A stretch of 64,000 bases of DNA from an uncultured Chromatiaceae bacterium (lineage in GTDB: Bacteria; Pseudomonadota; Gammaproteobacteria; SZUA-140), in assembly GCA_964605155.1 (NCBI GenBank), contig CAZSAK010000004.1, forward strand, positions 8,538 to 72,537. The letters run 5' to 3'. Both the position numbers and the translations under genes were made by a program. Position 1 is the first letter of the stretch; each line of letters begins with the position of its first letter. Positions 367 through 56,371 of the stretch are shown in pieces. Below the pieces are notes generated by a model. That model was not told the origin of the DNA. It saw only the letters and a list, made by a program, of their open reading frames with translations, and ran no database searches.

Positions 367-550
367 GTAAATTATCGCTATCGGGTATTCCTCATCAAGA
401 TCATGGGGAAGGATCTTGATACTTCGTATTTCAAACTGAATATACCTGGTTGGTTAACAGCCATGTTATCACAATGATTGTTTGCCTGGTATAAGGGAAT
501 TCGAACCGCAATACGCTGGAGGAACAGCCAAAGGAAAGGCGATCAATCGA

Positions 551-1291
551 CTATTCCTGGGTAGCCAGGCCGTGTTTGGCCAGTATGCCGCGCTTTTTGA
601 GGATATAAATCACAATAAAAGCGATAGTGGCGATGATAAACGCACACCCGATAAACACGAAATTATACATCGTATCTGCATAAGCCGGTAGTGACAGCCT
701 CTCATACACCAGGATACCGAGAATGGTGACGACAGTTGCATAGGCAGTGCTGTAATCCTTGAGCAATACCCGTGTCCAGGAAAATCTGTAGTCAGCCAGT
801 TTGTCGCGGACCCCGTTGAGCCTGAACGTCCAGCGGGGAACGTTATCGCAATAAGCCTGGTATTCGGCGCCGAATTTATTGCGCAGAAATGATTCTTCTG
901 CCGTGACAATCGCCTTGTAGGAGAGCAAGGCAACAGCAAACCCGATAAGGTAGGTCCATGGATTGTGGAATATGACCAGAAATCCAATTACCATCAATAT
1001 GTTTCCAACATAGAGCGGATTACGGCACAGGGAAAAAATACCTTCCGTAACCAGATTATCAGCGTACACCTTTTTGTTTACGCCGCCACGGCGGATATAG
1101 ACATAACCGATGACCAGAGCGCGCAGCGCCAGACCAGCCAGCATGATCACAGCACCGATGATATCGAAGATGATATCGCCTGTTACGTCACCCAGGGCCA
1201 GATGTGGCCTGAAGAAAACGATAAGCAGGATAATGATGACGGGGAAAAGGGCGTTACGATACCTAAACAGGAAGTGTCCAAGTTTTTCCAT
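551..1291 (-). CDS. Isoprenylcysteine carboxyl methyltransferase (ICMT/PEMT-like) family integral membrane methyltransferase
   Basis: 246 aa with multiple TM segments. C-terminal region NLVTEGIFSLCRNPLYVGNIL..FLRNKFGAEY resembles the ICMT/phospholipid-methyltransferase signature. Lies 18 bp downstream of cmoA on the same strand. Confidence 0.7.
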   Translation of the reverse strand: MEKLGHFLFRYRNALFPVIIILLIVFFRPHLALGDVTGDIIFDIIGAVIMLAGLALRALVIGYVYIRRGGVNKKVYADNLVTEGIFSLCRNPLYVGNILMVIGFLVIFHNPWTYLIGFAVALLSYKAIVTAEESFLRNKFGAEYQAYCDNVPRWTFRLNGVRDKLADYRFSWTRVLLKDYSTAYATVVTILGILVYERLSLPAYADTMYNFVFIGCAFIIATIAFIVIYILKKRGILAKHGLATQE

Positions 1292-1308
1292 GATTATTCT
1301 GAATTAGT

Positions 1309-2067
1309 TTACTTAAGCGCGATAATCCCGCAGAAGTTGTACCACCTGAAGAATATCTCAATATGCCGAAATCCGGCCCATTTCAACAAATCCCGGTTTT
1401 CTTCCCATTGATAGGGTATCAGGACATTTTCCAGCGCCTCACGCTTCTGTGCTATTTCAAGTTCCGAATAACCGTTACGTCGCTTCATCTCATAATAATA
1501 TTTTATAAACAGGCGATTGATCAGGCCGTCACTGGCAGTCAGTTTCTCAACCAGGATGATACAGCTGTTGGGGCGCATGCCCTCATAGATATTTTTGACA
1601 ACGCGTTCACGATAGAGCGGACGCATAAACTGCAGCATTAGTATCATGATGACAACGGATGCATTATCAACAACCTTGTCGTGATGTAAATCTGCCTGTA
1701 TAAGATCATAAGGCCGGGTAATTCCGGTATCCTGGAGTTTCAGGCGGGCTTTTTTCAGCATTTCTGCGGAATTGTCGATGCCTACGAAGCGGGTCCCCGG
1801 GTTGATGTATTTATCAAGTTCAACCAGTGTAGTGCCCGTCGAACAACCCAGATCGAAAAGATTACTGTCCTCTGTGGCAAAATCCGCTGCTATCTCGCAG
1901 GCCATCCTCTGGATCTCGTCATAGAAGGGGACCGAGCGGCTGACCATGTCATCGAAAACGGTTGCCGTGGCCTCGTCGAACTTGAAATCCATTTCCGGAC
2001 CGGAGCGATCGAAGAGCTGATCTTTCTGTTTGACCTTGTTGTCCTTGATGATCCTGTTTGTAGCCAT
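1309..2067 (-). CDS. cmoA: Carboxy-S-adenosyl-L-methionine synthase CmoA
   Basis: FDEATATVFDDMVSRSVPFYDEIQRM, DLGCSTG, RRNGYSELEIAQKREALENVL and FRWYNFCGIIALK align along the full length with E. coli CmoA. Confidence 0.85.
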   Translation of the reverse strand: MATNRIIKDNKVKQKDQLFDRSGPEMDFKFDEATATVFDDMVSRSVPFYDEIQRMACEIAADFATEDSNLFDLGCSTGTTLVELDKYINPGTRFVGIDNSAEMLKKARLKLQDTGITRPYDLIQADLHHDKVVDNASVVIMILMLQFMRPLYRERVVKNIYEGMRPNSCIILVEKLTASDGLINRLFIKYYYEMKRRNGYSELEIAQKREALENVLIPYQWEENRDLLKWAGFRHIEIFFRWYNFCGIIALK

Positions 2068-2216
2068 TTCTTGCAGCTTATCCGGCTTGATTACAGAGTG
2101 TGAATAAGACTTTAGCGGCCTTCATGTCAGTCAAATCTGGAAATTTTTGCCCTAGGATCATAATATTAATTTATAGTATAGATTATTACCGATTGATCAT
2201 CCAGAGGACGGGTATA

Positions 2217-2231
2217 TTCTATAATATAGAA
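2217..2231. promoter_or_regulatory. Perfect 15-bp palindrome TTCTATAATATAGAA in the divergent cmoA / hap-family intergenic region (candidate operator overlapping a TATAAT)
   Basis: Read directly from the sequence: TTCTATA-A-TATAGAA. It is about 150 bp from each flanking start codon. Confidence 0.3.
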
Positions 2232-2379
2232 CAAGTTGACGTCCTCACCGGTGTTCTAGTACCTTCCAGTCCCTTGTGCAGAAAAAAACGCTTTAAATAT
2301 TAAGTATAACGGCAAGCTGCAAGGTATGGATGATAAATCGGTGCTGGTGTCGGGATCAATTAAGCGATGAGGTTGAAGA

Positions 2380-2877
2380 ATGGATGAATATTGTGTGGTT
2401 GTAACAGATGGTACCCGAGCGAGGTTTTTTACCCTTGAGGCTGCGGATCTTCCCGGGGTGGAATCGGGCCCGAATCTCGTTGAGAGGGAGGATCTGATCA
2501 ATACTGAAGCCGAGATGCCGGGCCGCGAACTCTGGACGGACCCCAAATCAGGCCGCAATACGACCTCTTCGAGCGGCATGACACATGGTTATGATGATCA
2601 TCGTGATAAACACGATGATGAAATCGTACGACGTTTTGCTGCACAGGTAACCGGTGAGGCCATGCGACTGGTTCAACAGCATCACGCAAGACAGCTGGTG
2701 CTGGTATCCGCCAAGCGTATGCTGGGTTTTTTGCGGGATTCGCTGGTCATACCACCCAAGGCCAATTTAACAGTGCATGAATTGGCAAAAGACCTGACGC
2801 ACCTGAGTCTGCGGGATTTGCACGCTCACCTTGACAATGCCGGTCTGTTGCCAAAACGCAGGCAGGCATCCCTCTAG
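2380..2877 (+). CDS. Host-attachment protein (Hap, COG5622-like) family protein
   Basis: 165 aa; N-terminal VVVTDGTRARFF motif and overall size fit the Hap family. Weak recognition only. Confidence 0.45.
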   Translation: MDEYCVVVTDGTRARFFTLEAADLPGVESGPNLVEREDLINTEAEMPGRELWTDPKSGRNTTSSSGMTHGYDDHRDKHDDEIVRRFAAQVTGEAMRLVQQHHARQLVLVSAKRMLGFLRDSLVIPPKANLTVHELAKDLTHLSLRDLHAHLDNAGLLPKRRQASL

Positions 2878-2906
2878 ATTGACAGGATCCGCTATATCTC
2901 CAATGT

Positions 2907-2980
2907 TGGAGCGGGTGATGGGAATCGAACCCACGTTATCAGCTTGGGAAGCTGAAGTTCTACCATTGAACTACACCCGC
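2907..2980 (-). tRNA. tRNA-Gly (anticodon CCC)
   Basis: Minus strand reads GCGGGTGTAGTTCAATGGTAGAACTTCAGCTTCCCAAGCTGATAACGTGGGTTCGATTCCCATCACCCGCTCCA. Cloverleaf with a TTCCCAA anticodon loop, T-loop GGTTCGATTCC, and a CCA end. Near-identical to E. coli tRNA-Gly(CCC). Confidence 0.9.
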
Positions 2981-3185
2981 AGATCCAGTGGATCACCGCT
3001 GCCAATATATTACCCGTCAAGATATTACTCAATAGTACAATAGCCCACCATAGTAACGATCTATTCTGTACGGCGCCTTATCAGCTTTCGTCATAAATAT
3101 TTCATCGCCCGATCATATTTAATTCATAAAGGGCATGTAGATTTCTATGCGTTGTAAATCCACAATTTTGCAGGAGGTGTACACC

Positions 3186-3386
3186 GTGAATTTCTACATC
3201 AAAACCTGGCCCGATGATACCGCTACCCTGATGACCGACAACGGACAGGTGCTATGGTCTTTCCATTGCCTTAACGATGCCGTTGCCGCCTGCCGCGAAT
3301 GGTACGCCATGAATGAAGACAAGATCGGCCATGGCGATTGTATTAAGGAAGGTGAAGTTTATTCCTTTTTAGACACATATAATTAG
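3186..3386 (+). CDS. Small hypothetical protein (66 aa, GTG start)
   Basis: AGGAGG lies 8 nt upstream of GTG. Product VNFYIKTWPDDTATLMTDNGQVLWSFHCLNDAVAACREWYAMNEDKIGHGDC... No family recognised. Confidence 0.35.
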   Translation: MNFYIKTWPDDTATLMTDNGQVLWSFHCLNDAVAACREWYAMNEDKIGHGDCIKEGEVYSFLDTYN

Positions 3387-3610
3387 TTGTGATTTCTGCA
3401 GCAATTTGTTAATACTTGTTGACGAATTGCGGCGTGATACTACGCTACGTTAGCTCTTTACCCACCGTGCTTCACTGACCTGGATTCAGAGATTCCAGGC
3501 ATCAAGCCACTGCTTATGATGTAAACATGGCAGCATATACATCATGTCCGTTTGCTATAGTCACTAAGTGTAGTTAATCTGATAGCATCCCAATGTTAGA
3601 ATAGCGAGTC

Positions 3611-4522: not shown

Positions 4523-5284
4523 TTGCCTGCCGCCGGCTCCAATCCTTGCGACCAGCACGATAATCAATGTGATGTAGAAGGGCAGGATGATTGCATAAAG
4601 CAGGATATCGAGAATAGATTCCGCGATCAAAGAAGTGGTCAGGGATCTCAGTATCAGGTTTATGCCGAACAGTATACCCCCGGTCATGAACAATGGTGTT
4701 GTTGTGTGTACCAATATATCGTTGCCACGCGTCAACGACCAGGCACGTGTCAACGTGGAAACCTTTCCCGTCACAGATTCCCAGTGTGTGTCATTTGAAT
4801 AGAGAAACGGTATGCCAATCATTGGCCAGACACGCGTCAACATTAATATGAACAGCACGGCATACATGGGTAACATATCCGCGATAAACCCACCTGTATT
4901 GATTTCGCCGAAAAATGACAACACGATGGTGAGTAAAAGACAGCCTATCAGGTACAGGGAGTAGAGCCAGCAATAGTCCAGTACGGATGAAAAGTGCGTA
5001 AAGTAGAGCCGCATTACACCTTGTTGACAGTGTGCAACGGCCTTGGTTGCGGCAGCCGCATAACAGACAAGCCCGGTCGGTAATAATAACAACAAACCTA
5101 TGGATGAATGATAATCGAGGGCGGGGTTAATGATCTCAACAGCAAACCACATCCAGGCGATGGCGGGAAGAAAATATCGGTAGCCGCAAGAGACTTGTGA
5201 TACGGCCCGCTGCACGGCGGCGTGGAATCCTGATCGCCGAATTTTCCAGGCCTGAGTCCTGTTTAACGTTTCTTGTTGTTTCAT
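4514..5284 (-). CDS. Hypothetical polytopic membrane protein (possibly Yip1-like)
   Basis: 256 aa with 5-6 hydrophobic segments. Convergent with mscS, with an 8-nt overlap. No confident family. Confidence 0.5.
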   Translation of the reverse strand: MKQQETLNRTQAWKIRRSGFHAAVQRAVSQVSCGYRYFLPAIAWMWFAVEIINPALDYHSSIGLLLLLPTGLVCYAAAATKAVAHCQQGVMRLYFTHFSSVLDYCWLYSLYLIGCLLLTIVLSFFGEINTGGFIADMLPMYAVLFILMLTRVWPMIGIPFLYSNDTHWESVTGKVSTLTRAWSLTRGNDILVHTTTPLFMTGGILFGINLILRSLTTSLIAESILDILLYAIILPFYITLIIVLVARIGAGGRQSA

Positions 5285-5415
5285 GCTATTTGACGGTTAT
5301 ACGCCGAACCAAGAGGATGTTTCAGGTGTAAAAGTGATAGCGGCCCTGTACTGCCATCCTTTAATATAGTTGATCACATTATGTGGGATGCGAATTGATA
5401 CTATAGCGTACGACA

Positions 5416-6036
5416 ATGGAACTGCTGCTTCATACCTTCGTTACCTTGTTCGTAGTTCTCGATCCCATCGGACTGGCGCCGATGTTCGTAGCCCTGGTCC
5501 GCAGCAGTGATACTGGATATCAACGCAGGATGGCCATCCGCAGCACTGTGATTGCATCAAGTATTTTGCTGGTGTTCTTTTTTGTCGGTGATGCATTGTT
5601 GAAGATATTGGGCATCGGCATGCCGGCATTTCGCATGGCCGGTGGCGCCTTGCTGTTCCTGCTGTCTATCGACATGGTGTTCGCCCGTCAATCGGGGTTA
5701 CGTTCCACAACTGTACGCGAACAACAGGAGGCGGAACTCAAGCGCGATATCTCTGTATTCCCGCTTGCCTTTCCCTTGATTGCCGGGCCCGGAGCCCTGA
5801 CAACGGTATTACTCATGTCTTCGACGGAGACGAGCCCGGCCGTCGTCGGCGGGATGTTGGCAATTCTGTTGTTTGTATTGAGTATATTGCTAGTCTCCTT
5901 GTTATATGCCTTGAAGATCACGCGGCTTTTGGGAGAAACCGGTACCAACGTTATCAGTCGTCTGTTTGGCCTGATCTTGGCGGCCCTTGCAGCGCAATAT
6001 ATCGTTGACGGCATCAGGGCCGCGTTTTTATCATGA
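5416..6036 (+). CDS. MarC family (UPF0056) integral membrane protein
   Basis: 206 aa. N-terminal LFVVLDPIGLAPMFVAL motif and 6-TM topology are typical of MarC/YhgN. Confidence 0.8.
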   Translation: MELLLHTFVTLFVVLDPIGLAPMFVALVRSSDTGYQRRMAIRSTVIASSILLVFFFVGDALLKILGIGMPAFRMAGGALLFLLSIDMVFARQSGLRSTTVREQQEAELKRDISVFPLAFPLIAGPGALTTVLLMSSTETSPAVVGGMLAILLFVLSILLVSLLYALKITRLLGETGTNVISRLFGLILAALAAQYIVDGIRAAFLS

Positions 6037-48535: not shown

Positions 48536-49879
48536 TCAGGGAGTCGTGCCAGGTCCTACGGTCACGGTCACCATCTTGTCCGGATGGACACGCCTGTCGA
48601 AGGCATCCTCGATTTGCTTGACGGTTACCGCATCGACATGATCGTTGAAGGTATCTAGAAAATCGAGTGGCAAATTATAGAATCCGATGGAAGATAGATT
48701 ATCCACTATCTTGCCGTTGCTGGAGATACGCAATGGGAATCCGCCGGTAATATTCTGTTTGGATGCCTTGAGTTCCTTTTCCGTGGGGCCATCGTCGATG
48801 AAGTCCCGCAGGGTATCACGCAGGACACCGATGGCCTCTTGCGTTTGTTCATTGCGCGTCTGCAGACCAAGTGTATACGGTCCCTTGTAGCGCATGGGTG
48901 TAAAATAACTGTAGGCGCTGTATGAAAGGCCGCGTTTTTCGCGGACTTCTTCACTGATGCGCGATACCAGGCCGCTTCCACCGAGGATGTGATTGCCAAC
49001 ATAGAGAGGGAAATAATCCGGATCATCGCGGGTCATCCCCGGCTGTCCGATCAGGACGTGGGTCTGAGTTGAGGGAAAATCTATATGAATGGTAGCGGCC
49101 TCTGTCAGTGGTTCCACCTTGTGTAGCGGCGGAGGTGTTTTCCCAGCCGGCAATCCTGATACCAGGGTATCGACAAGCGCCTCGGCACCGGCACGGTCCA
49201 GCGCGCCGACAACGGCCACAACCGCATTTCGCGCCACATAAAAGCGTTTATGAAAGTCGATCGCATCGTCACGGTCAAGTTCAATCAGTGAGTCTTCTGT
49301 ACCGAGTATCGGAGAGGCATATGGATGGGCGTTGTATAAGGCCTTGTAAAAGGCCTTGCTGGCGATGGCGCCGGGTGATTGCTGTTCGGCCTGCAGGGAG
49401 ATCAGCATCTGGTTGCGCACCCTATCGAAACTGTCCTGGGGAAAGGTGGGATCGCGCAGAATAAGCGCATAGGTTTCCAGAGCGGGCTTCAGCAACTTGG
49501 GATCGGTAAGGCTGCGCAGACTGGTTACAGCCATGTCGCGATGCGAACTTGTGCCGAATTGTGCGCCGAGATTTTCAAAACGCTCTGCTATCTCATCCGC
49601 ATTGAGATCACCGGCGCCTTCGTCAAGCATGCTGTTGGTCAGTTGGGCGATCCCTTCCTTGTCACCATCGCGAGAACCTCCGGCATCAAATATGATCTGC
49701 ACATCGACCATGGGTAGTTCTGGTGCCGGGACAAAGTAGACCCGTGCGCCGTTAGCGGTGGTCCAATGCTGGATGGCGGGGGCAGCGTACGAAGTTACGG
49801 GTAAAATCGATAGACAGATGACTGCAAGCAACAGGGAGAACGAATAGAGTTTGTTCGATGGAATATGAGGAGATTTCAT
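48536..49879 (-). CDS. M16 family peptidase, inactive (non-catalytic) subunit
   Basis: Signal peptide (from MKSPHIP...). M16 fold without the HxxEH zinc motif. Paired with the upstream catalytic M16 gene. The ORF opens at 49978. Confidence 0.75.
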   Translation of the reverse strand: MKSPHIPSNKLYSFSLLLAVICLSILPVTSYAAPAIQHWTTANGARVYFVPAPELPMVDVQIIFDAGGSRDGDKEGIAQLTNSMLDEGAGDLNADEIAERFENLGAQFGTSSHRDMAVTSLRSLTDPKLLKPALETYALILRDPTFPQDSFDRVRNQMLISLQAEQQSPGAIASKAFYKALYNAHPYASPILGTEDSLIELDRDDAIDFHKRFYVARNAVVAVVGALDRAGAEALVDTLVSGLPAGKTPPPLHKVEPLTEAATIHIDFPSTQTHVLIGQPGMTRDDPDYFPLYVGNHILGGSGLVSRISEEVREKRGLSYSAYSYFTPMRYKGPYTLGLQTRNEQTQEAIGVLRDTLRDFIDDGPTEKELKASKQNITGGFPLRISSNGKIVDNLSSIGFYNLPLDFLDTFNDHVDAVTVKQIEDAFDRRVHPDKMVTVTVGPGTTP

Positions 49880-49922
49880 GGTGTCGTGCCTTAGAGTGTT
49901 CACGTGATTTATTTTCCTGTAA

Positions 49923-51302
49923 TTAAAAATCATGGCGACCTCCACCCATGGCCGGGCGATGCATGGGTTTGTCTTCAAGCGGCAGGGGTTGGAGGATTGC
50001 CACCGTCAGATTGTCATCAATCAGATATTTGCGTGCAACCTTCTGTATCTGTTCGGGCGTTACGGCCTTGATCCGGTCGACGTATTCGTCGAGTAATTTC
50101 CAGCTAAGCCCGATGCTTTCCAGCATACCTATTTGCATGGCTTGGTAGAATACCGAGTCTCGCCCGTAGACGTCCGATGCGATGACCTGTGCCTTGATGC
50201 GGGCAAGTTCGTTGTCCGAAACAGGCTTTTCGCGCAGACGCCTGACCTGTGCCTTCAGTGCATCTTCAATCTCGCCGATCGAATGGCCACGAGCGGGCGT
50301 ACCATCAAGCGTCAGAAGGTCTTCAATACGGGACGTCATGTTATAGCCGGCGCTCACGCTGGCCGCGATCTGCTTGTCCCGGATCAGTTCCTTGGAAAAT
50401 CGTGCACTGTCGCCACCGTCGAGCACCGCCGCAAGCACCTCCAGTGCGTAGGGTTCCCATTCTTCATCAGCAGTGGTCAGAACCGGGGTTTTATAACCCA
50501 TGATAATAAACGGGAGTTCGGCGGGCGTTTTTACAACGATACGGCGTTCACCGACCTGGGGTATTTCAGTTCTGGGTTTGAGTGGCTGGAGCTTGCTTGG
50601 TTTGAGCGGGCCGAAATATTTCTTAGCCAGCTTGAGTACCACCTGGGGATCAACGTCACCCACCACGACCAGGGTTGCGTTGTTGGGGGCGTACCATCTG
50701 TCATACCATGCCTTGAGGTCATCGGCGGTCATGTTTTGCAGATCATTCATCCAGCCGATAACGGAATGATGATAGGGGCTGTTGACAAAGGCTGCGGCGG
50801 TGAATTGTTCATAGGTTAATGACTGGGGACTGTCATCGGTGCGCATGCGGCGCTCTTCCATGACCACCTGTATTTCTTTTGCAAAATCTTCCTTGCGTAG
50901 GAGCAGATTACGCATGCGGTCAGATTCAAGTTCAAAACTCACGTGCAGTCGGCTTTTTTCCAGTTGCTGGAAGTATGCAGTATAGTCACGTCCTGTAAAT
51001 GCATTTTCACGACCGCCGTTTTCGCTGATAATTCGCGAAAATTCACCTGCCGGATGCTTGGACGTTCCCTTGAACATCATATGCTCGAGCGCATGGGAGA
51101 TTCCGGTGATGCCGTCATGTTCATAGCTGCTACCCACCTTGTACCATACCTGTGAAACAACAACGGGAGCGCGGTGGTCTTCCTTGACAAGCACCTTGAG
51201 GCCGTTTTTCAGCATATATTCATGTACATCCTGTGATTCAGCGGCGACAAGGTTGGTCGCGGGCAACAGCAGTGCCAGGGTAAGAATGAGAGTCTTGAAC
51301 AT
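49923..51302 (-). CDS. M16 family zinc metallopeptidase (catalytic subunit, HxxEH)
   Basis: Signal peptide; inverted zinc-binding motif HALEHMMFKGT and a downstream E. Pitrilysin/PqqL-like. Confidence 0.8.
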   Translation of the reverse strand: MFKTLILTLALLLPATNLVAAESQDVHEYMLKNGLKVLVKEDHRAPVVVSQVWYKVGSSYEHDGITGISHALEHMMFKGTSKHPAGEFSRIISENGGRENAFTGRDYTAYFQQLEKSRLHVSFELESDRMRNLLLRKEDFAKEIQVVMEERRMRTDDSPQSLTYEQFTAAAFVNSPYHHSVIGWMNDLQNMTADDLKAWYDRWYAPNNATLVVVGDVDPQVVLKLAKKYFGPLKPSKLQPLKPRTEIPQVGERRIVVKTPAELPFIIMGYKTPVLTTADEEWEPYALEVLAAVLDGGDSARFSKELIRDKQIAASVSAGYNMTSRIEDLLTLDGTPARGHSIGEIEDALKAQVRRLREKPVSDNELARIKAQVIASDVYGRDSVFYQAMQIGMLESIGLSWKLLDEYVDRIKAVTPEQIQKVARKYLIDDNLTVAILQPLPLEDKPMHRPAMGGGRHDF

Positions 51303-51524: not shown

Positions 51525-52493
51525 ATGTTTAGATCCGGAAAAAACCAAGAGACGATGGAAGTTCATGTTCCAAAAGCAGGCTTGCTGGGGAGATTAAAAG
51601 ACAGGTTGAGCCGCACCCGAAACGGGTTGATGGATGGAATGGCTGCCCTTTTGCTGGGCAAGAAGGTCATTGATGAAAAGGTCCTGGAAGAACTCGAAAT
51701 GGTAATGTTGTCGGCTGATCTCGGTGTAGAGGCGACACAGGAAATCATCGACGACCTGACGGAACGCGTTTCACGCAAACAACTCAATGACAGTAATGCC
51801 GTGATTGAGGCATTACGCACCGCGATGCTCGATATTCTTAAACCATGCACTAAACCCCTGGATATCCCGGGGGAACACAAGCCGTACGTGATTTTGATGG
51901 TGGGAGTCAACGGCGTGGGCAAAACTACCACCATTGGCAAGCTTGCGAAGAAACTCCAGGCGGTGGACAAGACGGTAATGCTCGCTGCCGGGGATACCTT
52001 TCGAGCCGCGGCAATCGAGCAGCTTCAGGTGTGGGGAGAACGCAATCAGATCAGTGTGATTTCCCAGCCGCGGGCCTCGGATCCCGCATCGGTTGTATTT
52101 GATGCCATGCAGGCCGCGAAGGCGCGTGATATCGATGTGTTGATTGCCGATACGGCCGGACGTTTGCACACACAGTCCAATCTTATGGAAGAACTTAAAA
52201 AGATCAGGCGTGTGATGTCGCGTATCGATGCGACCGCACCACACGAGGTCATGCTTGTGGTTGATGCCGGCACCGGACAAAATGCACTCGCCCAGGCGAA
52301 ACAGTTCCATGAGGCGGTAAATCTGACCGGTATCACATTGACGAAACTTGATGGTACGGCAAAAGGCGGTATTATTTTCGCCTTGGCGAAAAAATTTTCC
52401 ATACCCATTCGCTTTATCGGTGTAGGTGAAGGAATCGATGATCTGCGCGAATTTGATGCGGATGAATTCATTGACGCATTATTCACAAAGTAG
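51525..52493 (+). CDS. ftsY: Signal recognition particle receptor FtsY (short form lacking acidic A domain)
   Basis: NG domain; GVNGVGKTTTIGKLA, DTAGR and TKLDGTAKGG motifs. Confidence 0.9.
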   Translation: MFRSGKNQETMEVHVPKAGLLGRLKDRLSRTRNGLMDGMAALLLGKKVIDEKVLEELEMVMLSADLGVEATQEIIDDLTERVSRKQLNDSNAVIEALRTAMLDILKPCTKPLDIPGEHKPYVILMVGVNGVGKTTTIGKLAKKLQAVDKTVMLAAGDTFRAAAIEQLQVWGERNQISVISQPRASDPASVVFDAMQAAKARDIDVLIADTAGRLHTQSNLMEELKKIRRVMSRIDATAPHEVMLVVDAGTGQNALAQAKQFHEAVNLTGITLTKLDGTAKGGIIFALAKKFSIPIRFIGVGEGIDDLREFDADEFIDALFTK

Positions 52494-52524: not shown

Positions 52525-53193
52525 ATGCTTCAATTTAATAACGTCGGCAAACGATATCCCGGCGGACACGAGGCGCTGAATGGCATAACCATGTCGCTGG
52601 AACAGGGCGAGATGGCGTTTCTGACCGGCCATTCCGGCGCCGGGAAAAGTACCTTGTTAAAATTGATCGCCCTGATCGAGCGTGCCTCCAGCGGGCAGAT
52701 CATTGTCAATGGCAAAAACCTGATGCGCATCGGGCGGCGTGGTATACCGTATATACGTCGTAAGATCGGTGTAATTTTTCAAAACAACAAACTGCTCTAT
52801 GACCGTACTGTGTTTGATAATGTTGCCCTGCCGCTGGTTATATGCGGCCATCATCATCGTGAAATACAGCGCCGGGTGCGTGCAGCACTGGACAAGGTCG
52901 GACTGCTCGACAAGGAGAGACAGGCCCCTGTCAGCCTTTCAGGCGGTGAACAACAGCGTGTCGGAATAGCGCGCGCAGTTGTCAACAGGCCGCTATTGCT
53001 ACTGGCCGATGAGCCAACGGGAAATCTTGACCCCGACTTATCGCGTGAGATTATGAACCTGTTCGAACAATTTAATCAGGTCGGGGTTACCGTACTGATT
53101 GCAACGCATGACATCGATCTGATATCCGGAATGGGACATAGAAGGTTGATACTGGATCATGGCCGTTTGATTGACCGCAGCCCGGGGCATTAG
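52525..53193 (+). CDS. ftsE: Cell division ATP-binding protein FtsE
   Basis: Walker A GHSGAGKST, LSGGEQQR, LLLADEPTGNLD. Confidence 0.9.
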   Translation: MLQFNNVGKRYPGGHEALNGITMSLEQGEMAFLTGHSGAGKSTLLKLIALIERASSGQIIVNGKNLMRIGRRGIPYIRRKIGVIFQNNKLLYDRTVFDNVALPLVICGHHHREIQRRVRAALDKVGLLDKERQAPVSLSGGEQQRVGIARAVVNRPLLLLADEPTGNLDPDLSREIMNLFEQFNQVGVTVLIATHDIDLISGMGHRRLILDHGRLIDRSPGH

Positions 53194-53197
53194 TCGG

Positions 53198-54244
53198 ATG
53201 AGTAAGCAGGTCTCGCAACGGGTGCAACGCGCAGGCGCAATCAGCAGGGAAGAGCAATCCATTGCACCTCTGATTTCACATAAAGCAAGGATTGGTGGTG
53301 CATCGGCAAGGATTCCCGGCGCCAGGATGTTAACATCCTATTTTGTGCTTCACCTGCAGGCACTCGTATTCAGCCTGGGCAGGATGTGGCGCAATCCATT
53401 CTCCAGTTTCATGACAATTGCAGTAATTGGTATAGCACTGGCCTTGCCGAGCGGACTTCATGTCATATTAAAGAATGTCCAGGGCATCAGCTCAGGATGG
53501 GAGAATGCGACACAGATTTCATTGTTTCTCAAATCGGAGGTCGCGGACGAACAGGCCCTGAATCTGGCGCGGGATCTGGAGACCATGCCCGAGATCAGCA
53601 GTGTGAAATTTCTCTCTTCCACAGACGCCCTGGATGAATTCAGGCAGTTATCCGGTTTCGGAGATGCGCTGAATGCGCTGGATGAAAACCCGTTGCCCTC
53701 TCTGTTGATTGTGCAACCTGCCTCCGAGTTCAGCGCACCCGCGCGGGTTGGACATCTTCTCGATCGACTGCGTACCCACAGTGAGGTCGATATCGCCCAA
53801 CTCGATATGGAATGGATCAAGCGCCTGTATGCTTTGATGGAGATCGGCAGACGCGGAGTACTGGTATTGGCGGCAATACTGGCAATGGCCGTACTCCTGA
53901 TCGTCGGCAATACCATTCGTCTGGCCATACAAAATCGGCGGGATGAGATCGAGGTTCAAAAGCTGATCGGAGCTACAGACGCCTTTATTCGACGGCCTTT
54001 TCTCTATAGCGGGGTGTGGCACGGGGTTTTAGGTGCGTTAATTGCATGGATGCTGGTGGCGATCTCTCTGTGGCTGCTCAATGGTCCGGTACATCGGTTA
54101 TCGATGTTGTATGACAGTAATTTCAGACTGGGATCTCTGGGGTTCGGAGCATCGGCATTATTATTGACCACCGGTATTTTTTTGGGACTCCTGGGGGCAT
54201 GGGCTGCCGTTGGAAAACATCTGCGGGAGATAGAGCCGGGCTAG
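53198..54244 (+). CDS. ftsX: Cell division permease FtsX
   Basis: 4 TM segments with a large periplasmic loop. The ORF opens at 53171, overlapping ftsE; the Met at 53198 is the first start after the ftsE stop. Confidence 0.85.
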   Translation: MSKQVSQRVQRAGAISREEQSIAPLISHKARIGGASARIPGARMLTSYFVLHLQALVFSLGRMWRNPFSSFMTIAVIGIALALPSGLHVILKNVQGISSGWENATQISLFLKSEVADEQALNLARDLETMPEISSVKFLSSTDALDEFRQLSGFGDALNALDENPLPSLLIVQPASEFSAPARVGHLLDRLRTHSEVDIAQLDMEWIKRLYALMEIGRRGVLVLAAILAMAVLLIVGNTIRLAIQNRRDEIEVQKLIGATDAFIRRPFLYSGVWHGVLGALIAWMLVAISLWLLNGPVHRLSMLYDSNFRLGSLGFGASALLLTTGIFLGLLGAWAAVGKHLREIEPG

Positions 54245-54302: not shown

Positions 54303-55355
54303 GTGAAACTGTTATGCGATCTTATGAAGTTTCTCATCATCATCAATCTATTAATGTTGCTGTTTTCTTTAAATTCCAGTGCAGCAATGGACTGCGCATT
54401 TATCGGTGAGTCCTCGGGGAAGGAAATTCTGTGGACTGACATAATCGGTGTCAAGGAGCAGGGTGACAGCCTGGTAAAAACCGGACCCGAAGGCTGGAAC
54501 AGTGCTGCGTTTTCAACCCAGCATATCAGCGGTGATGGCGCATTCGAATTCACGGTCAAGGGGGCGATATCTTCCCGCATGGTGGGATTTGCCTATGTGA
54601 ATACCGATGTCAGGTATGAATGGATCGATTATGCAGTCTTCCTGACATCCTATGGCAGGCTGTATATCTTTGAAAACGGCGTGCAAAGAGGCAATTTCAC
54701 GACATACAGCGACAATGATGTAATACGAATCGAGCGCAAAAACACCGTCGTCACCTATTTGAAAAATGGTGAAAAGATCTACACCAGCAGTGTGCCGTCC
54801 ATTGGTGACCTCTATGTCGATGTCTCTTTGTATTCCGAGAATACGACCGTGAATGATGCAAGGATCTACGGCGCCGGCACGCTGACAGAGCGGGTTACAT
54901 GGCTGGACCAGGTTGATACTGAAATCAGGACGGACGCCCTAGAGAAGACGGGCGGCAAGGGATGGCAAAGCGGTGCGGCATCACTGCAATATATGCCGGG
55001 TGACGGTGCCGTCGAATTCACGGTCCGTGATGATAACGACACCCTTGTCTTCGGGCTGTCAAGGACGAATGAAAATGCCGGTTACAAGGACATCGATTAT
55101 GCCATCTACGTCTCGTCGAATGGCAGTTTTAATGTCTATGAAGACGGCTTCAACAAGGGCGGTTTTGGCACCTACCACAATAACGATCTCTTTCGAATTG
55201 AAAGACAGGGGTCGGAGATCACATATCTACGCAATTGCGAGCCCTTCTATGTCAGTAAAAAGCCGTCAACTGGACGTCTGTTGCTGGATGTATCGCTGTA
55301 TACAAGAGGGGCGCAGATCGCAAACGCCATCATTTACGGTGCTGTGTCGGAGTAA
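54303..55355 (+). CDS. Secreted protein composed of two tandem repeats of about 160 aa, unknown function (possible beta-sandwich/lectin-like)
   Basis: Signal peptide (LLMLLFSLNSSAA). Repeat 1 ...KTGPEGWNSAAFSTQHISGDGAFEFTVKG...IYGAG. Repeat 2 ...KTGGKGWQSGAASLQYMPGDGAVEFTVRD...IYGAV. The internal duplication is clear. Inserted between ftsX and rpoH. Confidence 0.6.
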   Translation: MKLLCDLMKFLIIINLLMLLFSLNSSAAMDCAFIGESSGKEILWTDIIGVKEQGDSLVKTGPEGWNSAAFSTQHISGDGAFEFTVKGAISSRMVGFAYVNTDVRYEWIDYAVFLTSYGRLYIFENGVQRGNFTTYSDNDVIRIERKNTVVTYLKNGEKIYTSSVPSIGDLYVDVSLYSENTTVNDARIYGAGTLTERVTWLDQVDTEIRTDALEKTGGKGWQSGAASLQYMPGDGAVEFTVRDDNDTLVFGLSRTNENAGYKDIDYAIYVSSNGSFNVYEDGFNKGGFGTYHNNDLFRIERQGSEITYLRNCEPFYVSKKPSTGRLLLDVSLYTRGAQIANAIIYGAVSE

Positions 55356-55516
55356 TAAATATTAACATAAACAATAAGTAATGAATTTTTATCGGCGGGT
55401 TTACAGCTTGTGTCAGGATCAATAACCACGGGCGAGGGAACTTTTAGACTTATTGGCACTCTTATAATATGAGTGCTAAACTATTGTAACTTAATGATTT
55501 GGGGTCATATTTATCC

Positions 55517-56371
55517 ATGATTAAAGGTAAGGAATTGACGATGATCGTCCCCACGGGGAGCATCGAGGGCTATATCCAGAGTGTGAATCGCATCCCGGTA
55601 CTGAGTGCCGAGGAAGAATATCGTCTGGCCGTGCGCCTGCGCGAGCATCATGACCTTGATGCAGCACGGCAACTGGTTCTGTCACACCTGCGATTTGTCG
55701 CCCATATCGCCCGTGGCTACAGCGGGTATGGATTGCCGCAGGCCGACTTGATACAGGAAGGCAATGTCGGCCTGATGAAAGCGGTCAAGCGCTTTGATCC
55801 GGAGATGAACGTCCGGCTGGTTTCGTTCGCTGTCCACTGGATACGTGCTGAAATCCATGAATTCATCCTGCGTAACTGGCGGATCGTCAAGGTGGCAACA
55901 ACCAAGGCCCAACGCAAATTGTTTTTTAACCTGCGCAGCAGAAAAAAGCGTCTCGGCTGGTTCAACCAGGACGAGGTCAATACGGTCGCCAGGGATCTGG
56001 GCGTGCGTCCCGAGGATGTCATCGAGATGGAAGCGCGGATGAGTGGCTACGATGCCTCTTTCGATCCATTCCCCGGCCATGAGGAAGAGGAGGAACGACC
56101 GTTCGCACCGGCCGCCTACCTGCAGGATTTGAGGATGGATCCCACCACTACCCTGGAACAGGATGACTGGGAAACCCATAACGCGGAGCGTTTACATGAT
56201 GCTATGGATACACTTGATGAGCGCAGCAGGGATATCCTAAGTAAACGCTGGTTGGCTGAAGAAAAGGTAACCCTCCAGGATCTGGCCGACCACTATCAGG
56301 TTTCCGCCGAGAGGATACGCCAACTGGAATCGAGCGCCATAAAAAAACTCCAGAGCGTCCTGGAAGCTTGA
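55517..56371 (+). CDS. rpoH: RNA polymerase sigma-32 (heat shock sigma factor)
   Basis: RpoH box QRKLFFNLR and regions 2.x and 4. Colinear with E. coli RpoH. The ORF opens at 55499; the Met at 55517 gives 284 aa. Confidence 0.9.

Follow-up and report, generated by a model that had tools for sequence, protein, structure and literature searches.

A two-copy concanavalin-like protein, probably exported, encoded between ftsX and rpoH in a narrow clade of uncultured Gammaproteobacteria

EnvC, PcsB and RipC are coupled to FtsEX in other bacteria, and partners of the EnvC/PcsB type are defined by a coiled coil together with a LytM or CHAP domain. Modules of the concanavalin-like fold located on the exterior of cells or virions normally bind surface polymers; SPRY domains are mostly intracellular protein-binding modules of eukaryotes. 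Here, we describe a gene located between ftsX and rpoH in a 64,000-nucleotide stretch of DNA from an uncultured Chromatiaceae bacterium (contig CAZSAK010000004.1), hereafter referred to as the window. The gene encodes two homologous domains behind a putative signal peptide, and we favour, with moderate confidence, the reading that its product is exported and binds an envelope polymer bivalently and without catalysis. The polymer would most plausibly be a glycan, for instance peptidoglycan or a surface polysaccharide, and the gene would be co-expressed with ftsYEX. The features of the gene are as follows:

54303..55355, + strand: coding sequence of the putatively exported two-domain protein, assigned from the list of open reading frames (ORFs), the orthologues and dN/dS; stop codon TAA at 55353-55355
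54324..54383, + strand: predicted Sec (type I) signal peptide, residues 1-20, MKFLIIINLLMLLFSLNSSA followed by AMDC, read from the sequence
54393..54395, + strand: Cys24, kept in 14/14 orthologous sequences, the window and 13 others, but lacking elsewhere in the family
54417..54881, + strand: repeat 1, residues 32-186, a predicted concanavalin-A-like beta-sandwich of ~154 amino acids (aa) (envelope of the hidden Markov model (HMM), 185 bits)
54885..55349, + strand: repeat 2, residues 188-342, second copy of the domain of repeat 1 (HMM envelope, 188 bits)
55236..55238, + strand: Cys305 of the RNCEPFY motif, which all sequences of the orthologue group have in place of a Gly found in most of the family

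The earlier note on this DNA had described a 350-aa ORF with a signal peptide between ftsX and rpoH, and the coordinates, the neighbours and the N-terminal features agree with this description. Translation from GTG 54303, the start used in the NCBI record, yields 350 aa, and the exact 350-aa product is on record there. The likely start, however, is the in-frame ATG 54324, which yields a protein of 343 aa with the N-terminus MKFLIIINLLMLLFSLNSSAAMDC, because the called starts (MKF...) of the closest full-length orthologues, P0002 and P0003, correspond to this codon. A first protein search returned 26 homologues, all of them metagenomic, 13 of which, with 332-354 aa, are full-length orthologues at 61-97% identity. 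The two-copy protein is thus known only from about 13 metagenomic orthologues in a narrow, so far uncultured gammaproteobacterial clade. Further searches did not extend this set: no relative was found in the GTDB genome contigs scanned with the two-domain protein, a scan of JGI metagenomes returned only two already known contigs, and domain alignment A3, used in a word-index search of proteins, retrieved just three short fragments, which added nothing. The host clade appears to be poorly sampled, since the best RpoH identity to GTDB representatives was only 74% among the matches listed, which derive from metagenome-assembled genomes of Chromatiales/Thiohalomonadaceae-like type.

Comparison with four orthologous loci by the Nei-Gojobori method gave a ratio of non-synonymous to synonymous substitution rates (dN/dS) of 0.29 relative to the 97% identical relative and of 0.08-0.09 relative to the 64-67% identical relatives, whose synonymous sites are saturated. 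Hence, the two-domain gene is real and under purifying selection. Only the window's weak ribosome-binding site and the fact that the gene is not annotated could speak for a spurious ORF or a decaying pseudogene; this explanation was rejected in view of the full-length orthologues, the dN/dS values of 0.08-0.29, the confident fold prediction and the hallmark residues kept in both repeats, and its probability is practically negligible. The codon usage, which had been called native in the earlier note, is indeed so: the GC content at third codon positions (GC3) is 0.59 as compared to 0.568 +/- 0.035 for the other genes of the window. Recent horizontal transfer was rejected, as GC3 is within the range of the window. 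Neither flanking repeats or insertion scars nor mobile-element genes were found around the gene, and no Rfam RNA element was detected near it.

The two repeats align over 151 residues without a gap, with 42% identity and an E-value of 1e-43, and the motifs quoted in the earlier note are present in this alignment. The repeats were therein regarded as an internal duplication. This is true insofar as they are homologous; their origin appears to be another, as each repeat is 44-48% identical to copies in unrelated giant proteins as compared to 41% between the two repeats. The protein therefore reads as a two-copy excerpt of a repeat family rather than as a private duplication. An exhaustive HMMER search of 1.84 billion cluster representatives retrieved 8,610 proteins at E<=1e-3, of which 2,098 reach E<=1e-30. 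Mostly 1,000-7,600 aa in length, the best 150 of the 8,610 have up to 25 matched stretches, with 2-25 copies in nearly all of them. The family was defined by alignment A3 and an HMM of 154 positions, which upon iteration identified 908 copies in 176 proteins. P0027 (6,469 aa) carries 25 copies and P0028 (5,433 aa) 19, both with a strict period of about 246-250 aa and a spacer of about 90 aa between the copies. Named members include Sorangium proteins labelled 'M23 family metallopeptidase' and a hypothetical protein of Polyangiaceae. Nineteen positions are conserved in the family at >=80% (W6, K21, W27, G30, A31, S33, G41, G57, L58, I70, E86, G88, Y97, D101, Y114, N117, S124, L132 and D135), of which repeat 2 keeps 19/19 and repeat 1 17/19.

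In agreement with the earlier note, which could assign no known domain family, Pfam-A and NCBIfam gave no meaningful match for the whole protein, either half or the domain consensus, even at E<=10. Likewise, Pfam scans of 52 multi-copy proteins matched partner domains only and never the repeat itself. By sequence comparison, both repeats belong to a very large domain family that has no name in Pfam or NCBIfam and is partly captured by PHROGs. The partner domains (PKD, Calx-beta, fn3, Big_9, TSP3, cadherin-like, RCC1 propellers, beta-helix and Peptidase_M23) are of kinds typical of extracellular proteins; fusion to an M23 peptidase occurs in 2/44 multi-copy homologues scanned, one of them from Sorangium. 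Two single homologues deserve a remark of their own. P0016, which is 35% identical (L007 5980-9110), overlaps the end of a gene for an M4-peptidase/Flg_new_2 protein, and its C-terminus reads as an out-of-frame continuation of a third repeat; P0026 is similarly frameshifted in appearance. Both are probably pieces of a larger multi-repeat protease gene that was broken by assembly or sequencing errors.

An AlphaFold2 model computed from a 27-sequence alignment has a mean predicted local distance difference test score (pLDDT) of 88 and comprises two all-beta domains and a low-confidence N-terminus; in repeat 1, which is all-beta, the pLDDT is mostly above 85. The mature protein is modelled almost wholly as beta-strand, without long helices or coiled coil. 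Each modelled domain has the two-sheet curved jelly-roll of ~150-200 residues that is characteristic of the concanavalin A-like lectin/glucanase superfamily, and its sandwich is of a SPRY/CBM66/LamG-like kind. Foldseek comparison with the PDB returned concanavalin-like two-domain matches, namely BT3469/DUF1080, tandem galectins, Gas6, laminin and neurexin LG pairs and SPRY regions of RyR, so that the lectin-type fold suspected in the earlier note is borne out by the model. The note had more specifically proposed a LamG/concanavalin-like beta-sandwich; the concanavalin part of this proposal stands, whereas a LamG assignment is not backed by any sequence profile: PF02210 and PF13385 gave no Pfam match, and the likeness to LG pairs exists at the fold level only. 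The model also resembles solved SPRY domains, which represent the nearest predicted shape within the superfamily. At the sequence level, the SPRY profile PF00622 matched neither the protein nor either repeat nor the family consensus at E<=10, and a profile search of PDB sequences hit no SPRY chain. The galectin profile PF00337 gave no match either, nor was the sugar-binding signature of galectins detected.

Since the fold matches include structures of GH16 and DUF1080, a concanavalin-like glycoside hydrolase (GH16-like or similar to DUF1080/3-keto-disaccharide hydrolases) was considered. A regular-expression search for the catalytic strand motif E-x-D-x-(x)-E of GH16 was negative, however, and neither GH16 nor DUF1080 was matched in Pfam. 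In addition, a single protein may contain as many as 25 tandem copies of the domain, as is typical of binding or spacer modules. We therefore consider an enzymatic role very improbable.

Sequence relatives of the domain are found in phages. Among the PHROGs, phrog_19691 (E 1e-21) and phrog_26502 (E 1e-10), both annotated 'virion structural protein', are matched by each repeat at profile positions of about 108-240, repeat 1 matching PHROG 19691 at 1.5e-10. Homology does not extend over the full ~620-aa profile of PHROG 19691/26502; thus, a domain is shared rather than family membership. The only match among PDB sequences is chain Q of 26gp/26la/44nx, a 620-aa 'Structural protein' (profile E 6e-6 and 2e-6), and repeat 2 matches the corresponding profile region of 26gp_Q. 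Chain Q of 26gp is identical to gp06/ORF005 of Pseudomonas phage KPP25 and relatives, and the gp06 gene of KPP25 lies in the structural module after a gene annotated as head closure. By profile comparison, the KPP25 structural protein is the only solved relative with detectable sequence homology. The literature on KPP25-type virion structures and these PDB codes yielded no description of a role for chain Q, and nothing specific was found in that on bacterial SPRY/concanavalin-like tail modules. On IMG/VR contigs, the domain is part of a protein of 888 aa, whose gene directly follows a tape-measure gene, and of another of 1,088 aa, whose N-terminus is of the tail-protein type. Fold matches in BFVD are tail, receptor-binding, lectin and adhesin proteins, the top match being a 344-aa two-domain protein of a marine phage annotated as Ash2 (SPRY)-like. 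As an aside, ORF002 of KPP25 in the structural gene cluster (L001 13453-14625) bears the RefSeq label 'photosystem II D1', which is almost certainly a mis-annotation.

The recurring setting of the domain is thus the outside of cells and virions. As the family members are extracellular multi-repeat proteins, M23 fusions and phage tail or virion proteins, the domain is by analogy most likely a non-catalytic binding (adhesion) module for ligands of the cell envelope, most plausibly glycans.

The N-terminus of the two-domain protein, with one basic residue, a hydrophobic run of ~15 residues and an AxA-type site (NSSA/AMDC), suggests export via Sec. Most of the 13 orthologues retain this A-x-A site together with the subsequent xxxC. 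A lipobox is lacking, the Cys being at +4 of the predicted mature protein. The latter has a mass of ~36 kDa, is acidic (isoelectric point about 4.7) and would be soluble. It contains exactly two cysteines, Cys24 and Cys305. Cys305 converts the 'NG' turn of the domain family to 'NC' in repeat 2, which is seen only in this orthologue group. The two residues may form a disulfide tying the N-terminal segment to repeat 2; the segment around Cys24 is of low confidence in the AlphaFold2 model.

The neighbourhood of the gene comprises the following features, the genes being named after the Pfam labels in related contigs whose gene order is identical:

51525-52493: ftsY, upstream of the two-domain gene
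52525-53193: ftsE, upstream of the two-domain gene
53171..54244, + strand: ftsX, last gene of ftsYEX; its stop is 59-80 bp before the start of the two-domain gene
55437..55479, + strand: rpoH promoter element GGAACTT-N16-TCTTA of apparent sigma-E type, assigned by resemblance
55517..56371, + strand: rpoH (sigma-32), downstream of the two-domain gene
After rpoH, opposite strand: bioD, bioC, bioH, bioF and bioB

The gene order is conserved in 5/5 orthologous loci (the window, L002, L003, L004/L005 and L006): two M16 peptidase genes, followed by ftsY, ftsE, ftsX, the two-domain gene and rpoH, and then bioD and its neighbours. L006 has the tightest junction, with about 11 bp (or an overlap) between the ftsX stop and the start of the two-domain gene; L002 and L004 have 29-30 bp there, and the window and L003 59-80 bp. 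A Shine-Dalgarno sequence is clear in L002 and L004 and weak in the window, and no terminator-like site was found in the window between 53900 and 55700. From this arrangement, we infer that the gene is probably the fourth cistron of ftsYEX and co-transcribed with it.

The putative promoter element upstream of rpoH, which resembles the -35/-10 consensus of E. coli rpoH P3, overlaps a 9-nucleotide inverted repeat that reads TTGGCACTC-N9-GAGTGCTAA in the window and TT(A/G)GCACTC-N9-GAGTGCTAA across loci. The element is kept in the window, L002, L003, L004 and L006 as well as in the relatives L010, L011 and L012, which lack the two-domain gene. Since the same element precedes rpoH in these relatives, the gene appears to have entered behind the ftsX stop and to have left the control region of rpoH intact. 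The palindrome itself could be a binding site for a regulator or a leader stem.

As to the ftsX-rpoH interval in related taxa, for which a comparison had been suggested in the earlier note, the gene is present in all five orthologous loci, whereas none of 80 related gammaproteobacterial rpoH loci, taken from GTDB species representatives among the matches listed, has a family member within 4 kb of rpoH. In 58/80 of these loci, ftsX is upstream on the same strand, and the gap to rpoH is <=450 bp in 44, 450-1,200 bp in five and >1.2 kb in nine cases. Five lineages carry a 438-456-aa ORF resembling a response regulator (L013 1386-2720, L015 2506-3870, L017 2567-3883, L022 2531-3874 and L048 2499-3869), Alteromonadaceae (L035, L046, L076) carry one or two ORFs of EAL/HDOD-type appearance in the gap, and L019 contains a 1,012-aa ORF on the opposite strand (539-3577, -); these identities were read from the N-terminal sequences only. 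The junction is, as far as these sequences tell, usually tight, yet a repeated landing site.

The closest non-orthologous homologue, P0024 (L096 3347-4573; 46% identity to repeat 2), also adjoins rpoH (5010-5858, -). In this other gammaproteobacterium, it lies beside ftsYEX, but beyond rpoH and in convergent orientation to the latter. P0024 consists of a signal peptide, Cohesin, He_PIG and one domain copy, and its gene follows a YD/Rhs-repeat ORF and a membrane ORF of 82 aa. The nearest relative of P0024, P0195 (Cohesin/He_PIG), which came from a word-index search dominated by matches to the He_PIG Ig domain, has no copy of the domain and is encoded (L099, L100) directly upstream of an RHS toxin gene and adjacent to integrase and transposase genes. 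P0024 thus looks like part of a mobile Rhs-type cassette with a swappable C-terminal module. Given this setting, a meaningful link between P0024 and rpoH was rejected, their adjacency being most likely a coincidence or hot-spot effect.

It is conceivable that the two-domain protein is a dedicated periplasmic accessory of FtsEX, which binds the periplasmic domain of FtsX or septal peptidoglycan and helps to place or regulate cell-wall hydrolases. In line with this idea, its gene always comes next after ftsX at a distance of 11-80 bp, even across orthologues with saturated synonymous sites, the protein is predicted to be exported, and the domain is fused to M23 peptidoglycan endopeptidases in the 2/44 homologues mentioned above. 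In fact, the operon position and the M23 fusions are the only positive hints of a role at the cell wall. However, the all-beta model lacks a coiled coil and a LytM or CHAP domain, the periplasmic domain of FtsX in this clade has no clade-specific indel or change relative to relatives without the gene, the gene is absent from all 80 related rpoH loci, the junction hosts unrelated genes elsewhere (response regulators and EAL/HDOD-like proteins), and the other rpoH-adjacent member, in L096, belongs to what looks like a mobile Rhs-type cassette. We therefore regard such an accessory function as improbable. Slightly less probable still, in our estimation, is a new type of FtsEX-associated periplasmic factor, that is an all-beta, lectin-fold and bivalent binder of peptidoglycan or glycan recruited into the ftsYEX operon for septal remodelling.

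Alternatively, the gene could be a passenger in a permissive intergenic site whose role is unrelated to division, e.g. a released lectin or adhesin, or a decoy derived from a phage receptor-binding protein. The family is dominated by giant surface/adhesin-like and phage tail proteins, other genes independently invaded the ftsX-rpoH gap, and the clade is narrow, all of which would fit a passenger. Yet, the position has long been stable with operon-like spacing after ftsX, mobile-element genes or repeats do not flank the gene, and no secretion-system signal was seen beyond the predicted Sec signal peptide. This scenario is possible, albeit unlikely.

In the preferred reading as an exported envelope-polymer binder, the two-copy version became fixed as the fourth gene behind ftsYEX in one narrow gammaproteobacterial clade; the gene would be co-transcribed with ftsYEX and its product exported by Sec, and the two concanavalin/SPRY-like modules would bind an envelope polymer bivalently, either in the periplasm or on the cell surface. 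Several observations weigh against this proposal. The signal peptide was judged by eye, and the larger gap after ftsX in the window (59-80 bp) and the weak Shine-Dalgarno sequence would allow for a promoter of its own. Enzymes (GH16, DUF1080) and protein-binding SPRY domains have this fold as well, so that 'glycan binder' just names its most frequent extracellular use. Finally, position alone does not prove a functional tie to ftsYEX, because other lineages carry unrelated genes in large gaps at the same junction, and the periplasmic domain of FtsX has no change specific to the clade.

By itself, the protein is one more conserved hypothetical exported protein. While the fold, the general kind of module and one solved phage member are known already, a two-copy protein that stands alone and has become fixed in the ftsYEX operon of a narrow uncultured clade is new. 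With thousands of protein clusters and no model in Pfam or NCBIfam, the ~154-residue concanavalin/SPRY-like domain recommends itself for a new curated family and for ligand discovery. The stable position behind ftsX may provide a genetic handle on cell-wall binding by the domain and on non-canonical FtsEX partners in some Gammaproteobacteria. If the protein were indeed an FtsEX-associated binder, this would assign a first function, cell-wall binding, to a large family common to M23 peptidases, giant surface proteins and phage tails. If, on the other hand, the gene just occupies a permissive place, the case would be further evidence that accessory genes land repeatedly between ftsX and rpoH.

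The remainder of the window is ordinary core chromosome, including spoT, recG, rpoN, a ptsP-like gene, mgtE, ggt and M16 peptidase genes. The two neighbouring genes for M16 (insulinase-type) peptidases (48536-51302, -) are divergent from ftsY, a pair that all orthologous loci, and L096 as well, have in this position.

How does the two-domain protein compare to the described systems? With EnvC, PcsB, RipC and CwlO, it shares the (predicted) export and a gene tied to ftsEX. These proteins, however, possess a coiled coil that docks on FtsX as well as a LytM, CHAP or NlpC/P60 domain, and both elements are absent from the two-domain protein according to the Pfam scan and the model. To bacterial concanavalin-like modules such as CBM66 and DUF1080 (BT3469-type), no sequence-level relationship was detected. 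From SPRY/B30.2 proteins, e.g. SPRYD3 (2yyo), TRIM67 (7qs5) and RanBP9 (5ji7), the protein differs by its presumed export, by the bacterial or phage origin of its domain, and by the missing SPRY profile match. Residues 107-240 of KPP25 chain Q match one repeat and have the motifs GW.aG..S, GDG..(E)F, YE.G, NG and D..LYS in common with it; the KPP25-type proteins of ~620 aa, however, are virion parts carrying one copy between other domains, in contrast to the free two-copy and putatively exported protein described here. Tandem galectins and LG/LNS pairs differ in sequence (8-12% identity, no Pfam matches) and in domain orientation, which is reflected by TM-scores (structural superposition) of 0.23-0.35. 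Nonetheless, they combine two concanavalin-like sandwiches in one chain (Foldseek E 1e-7 to 1e-6), as does the model of the two-domain protein, and this likeness suggests bivalent ligand binding as a working model.

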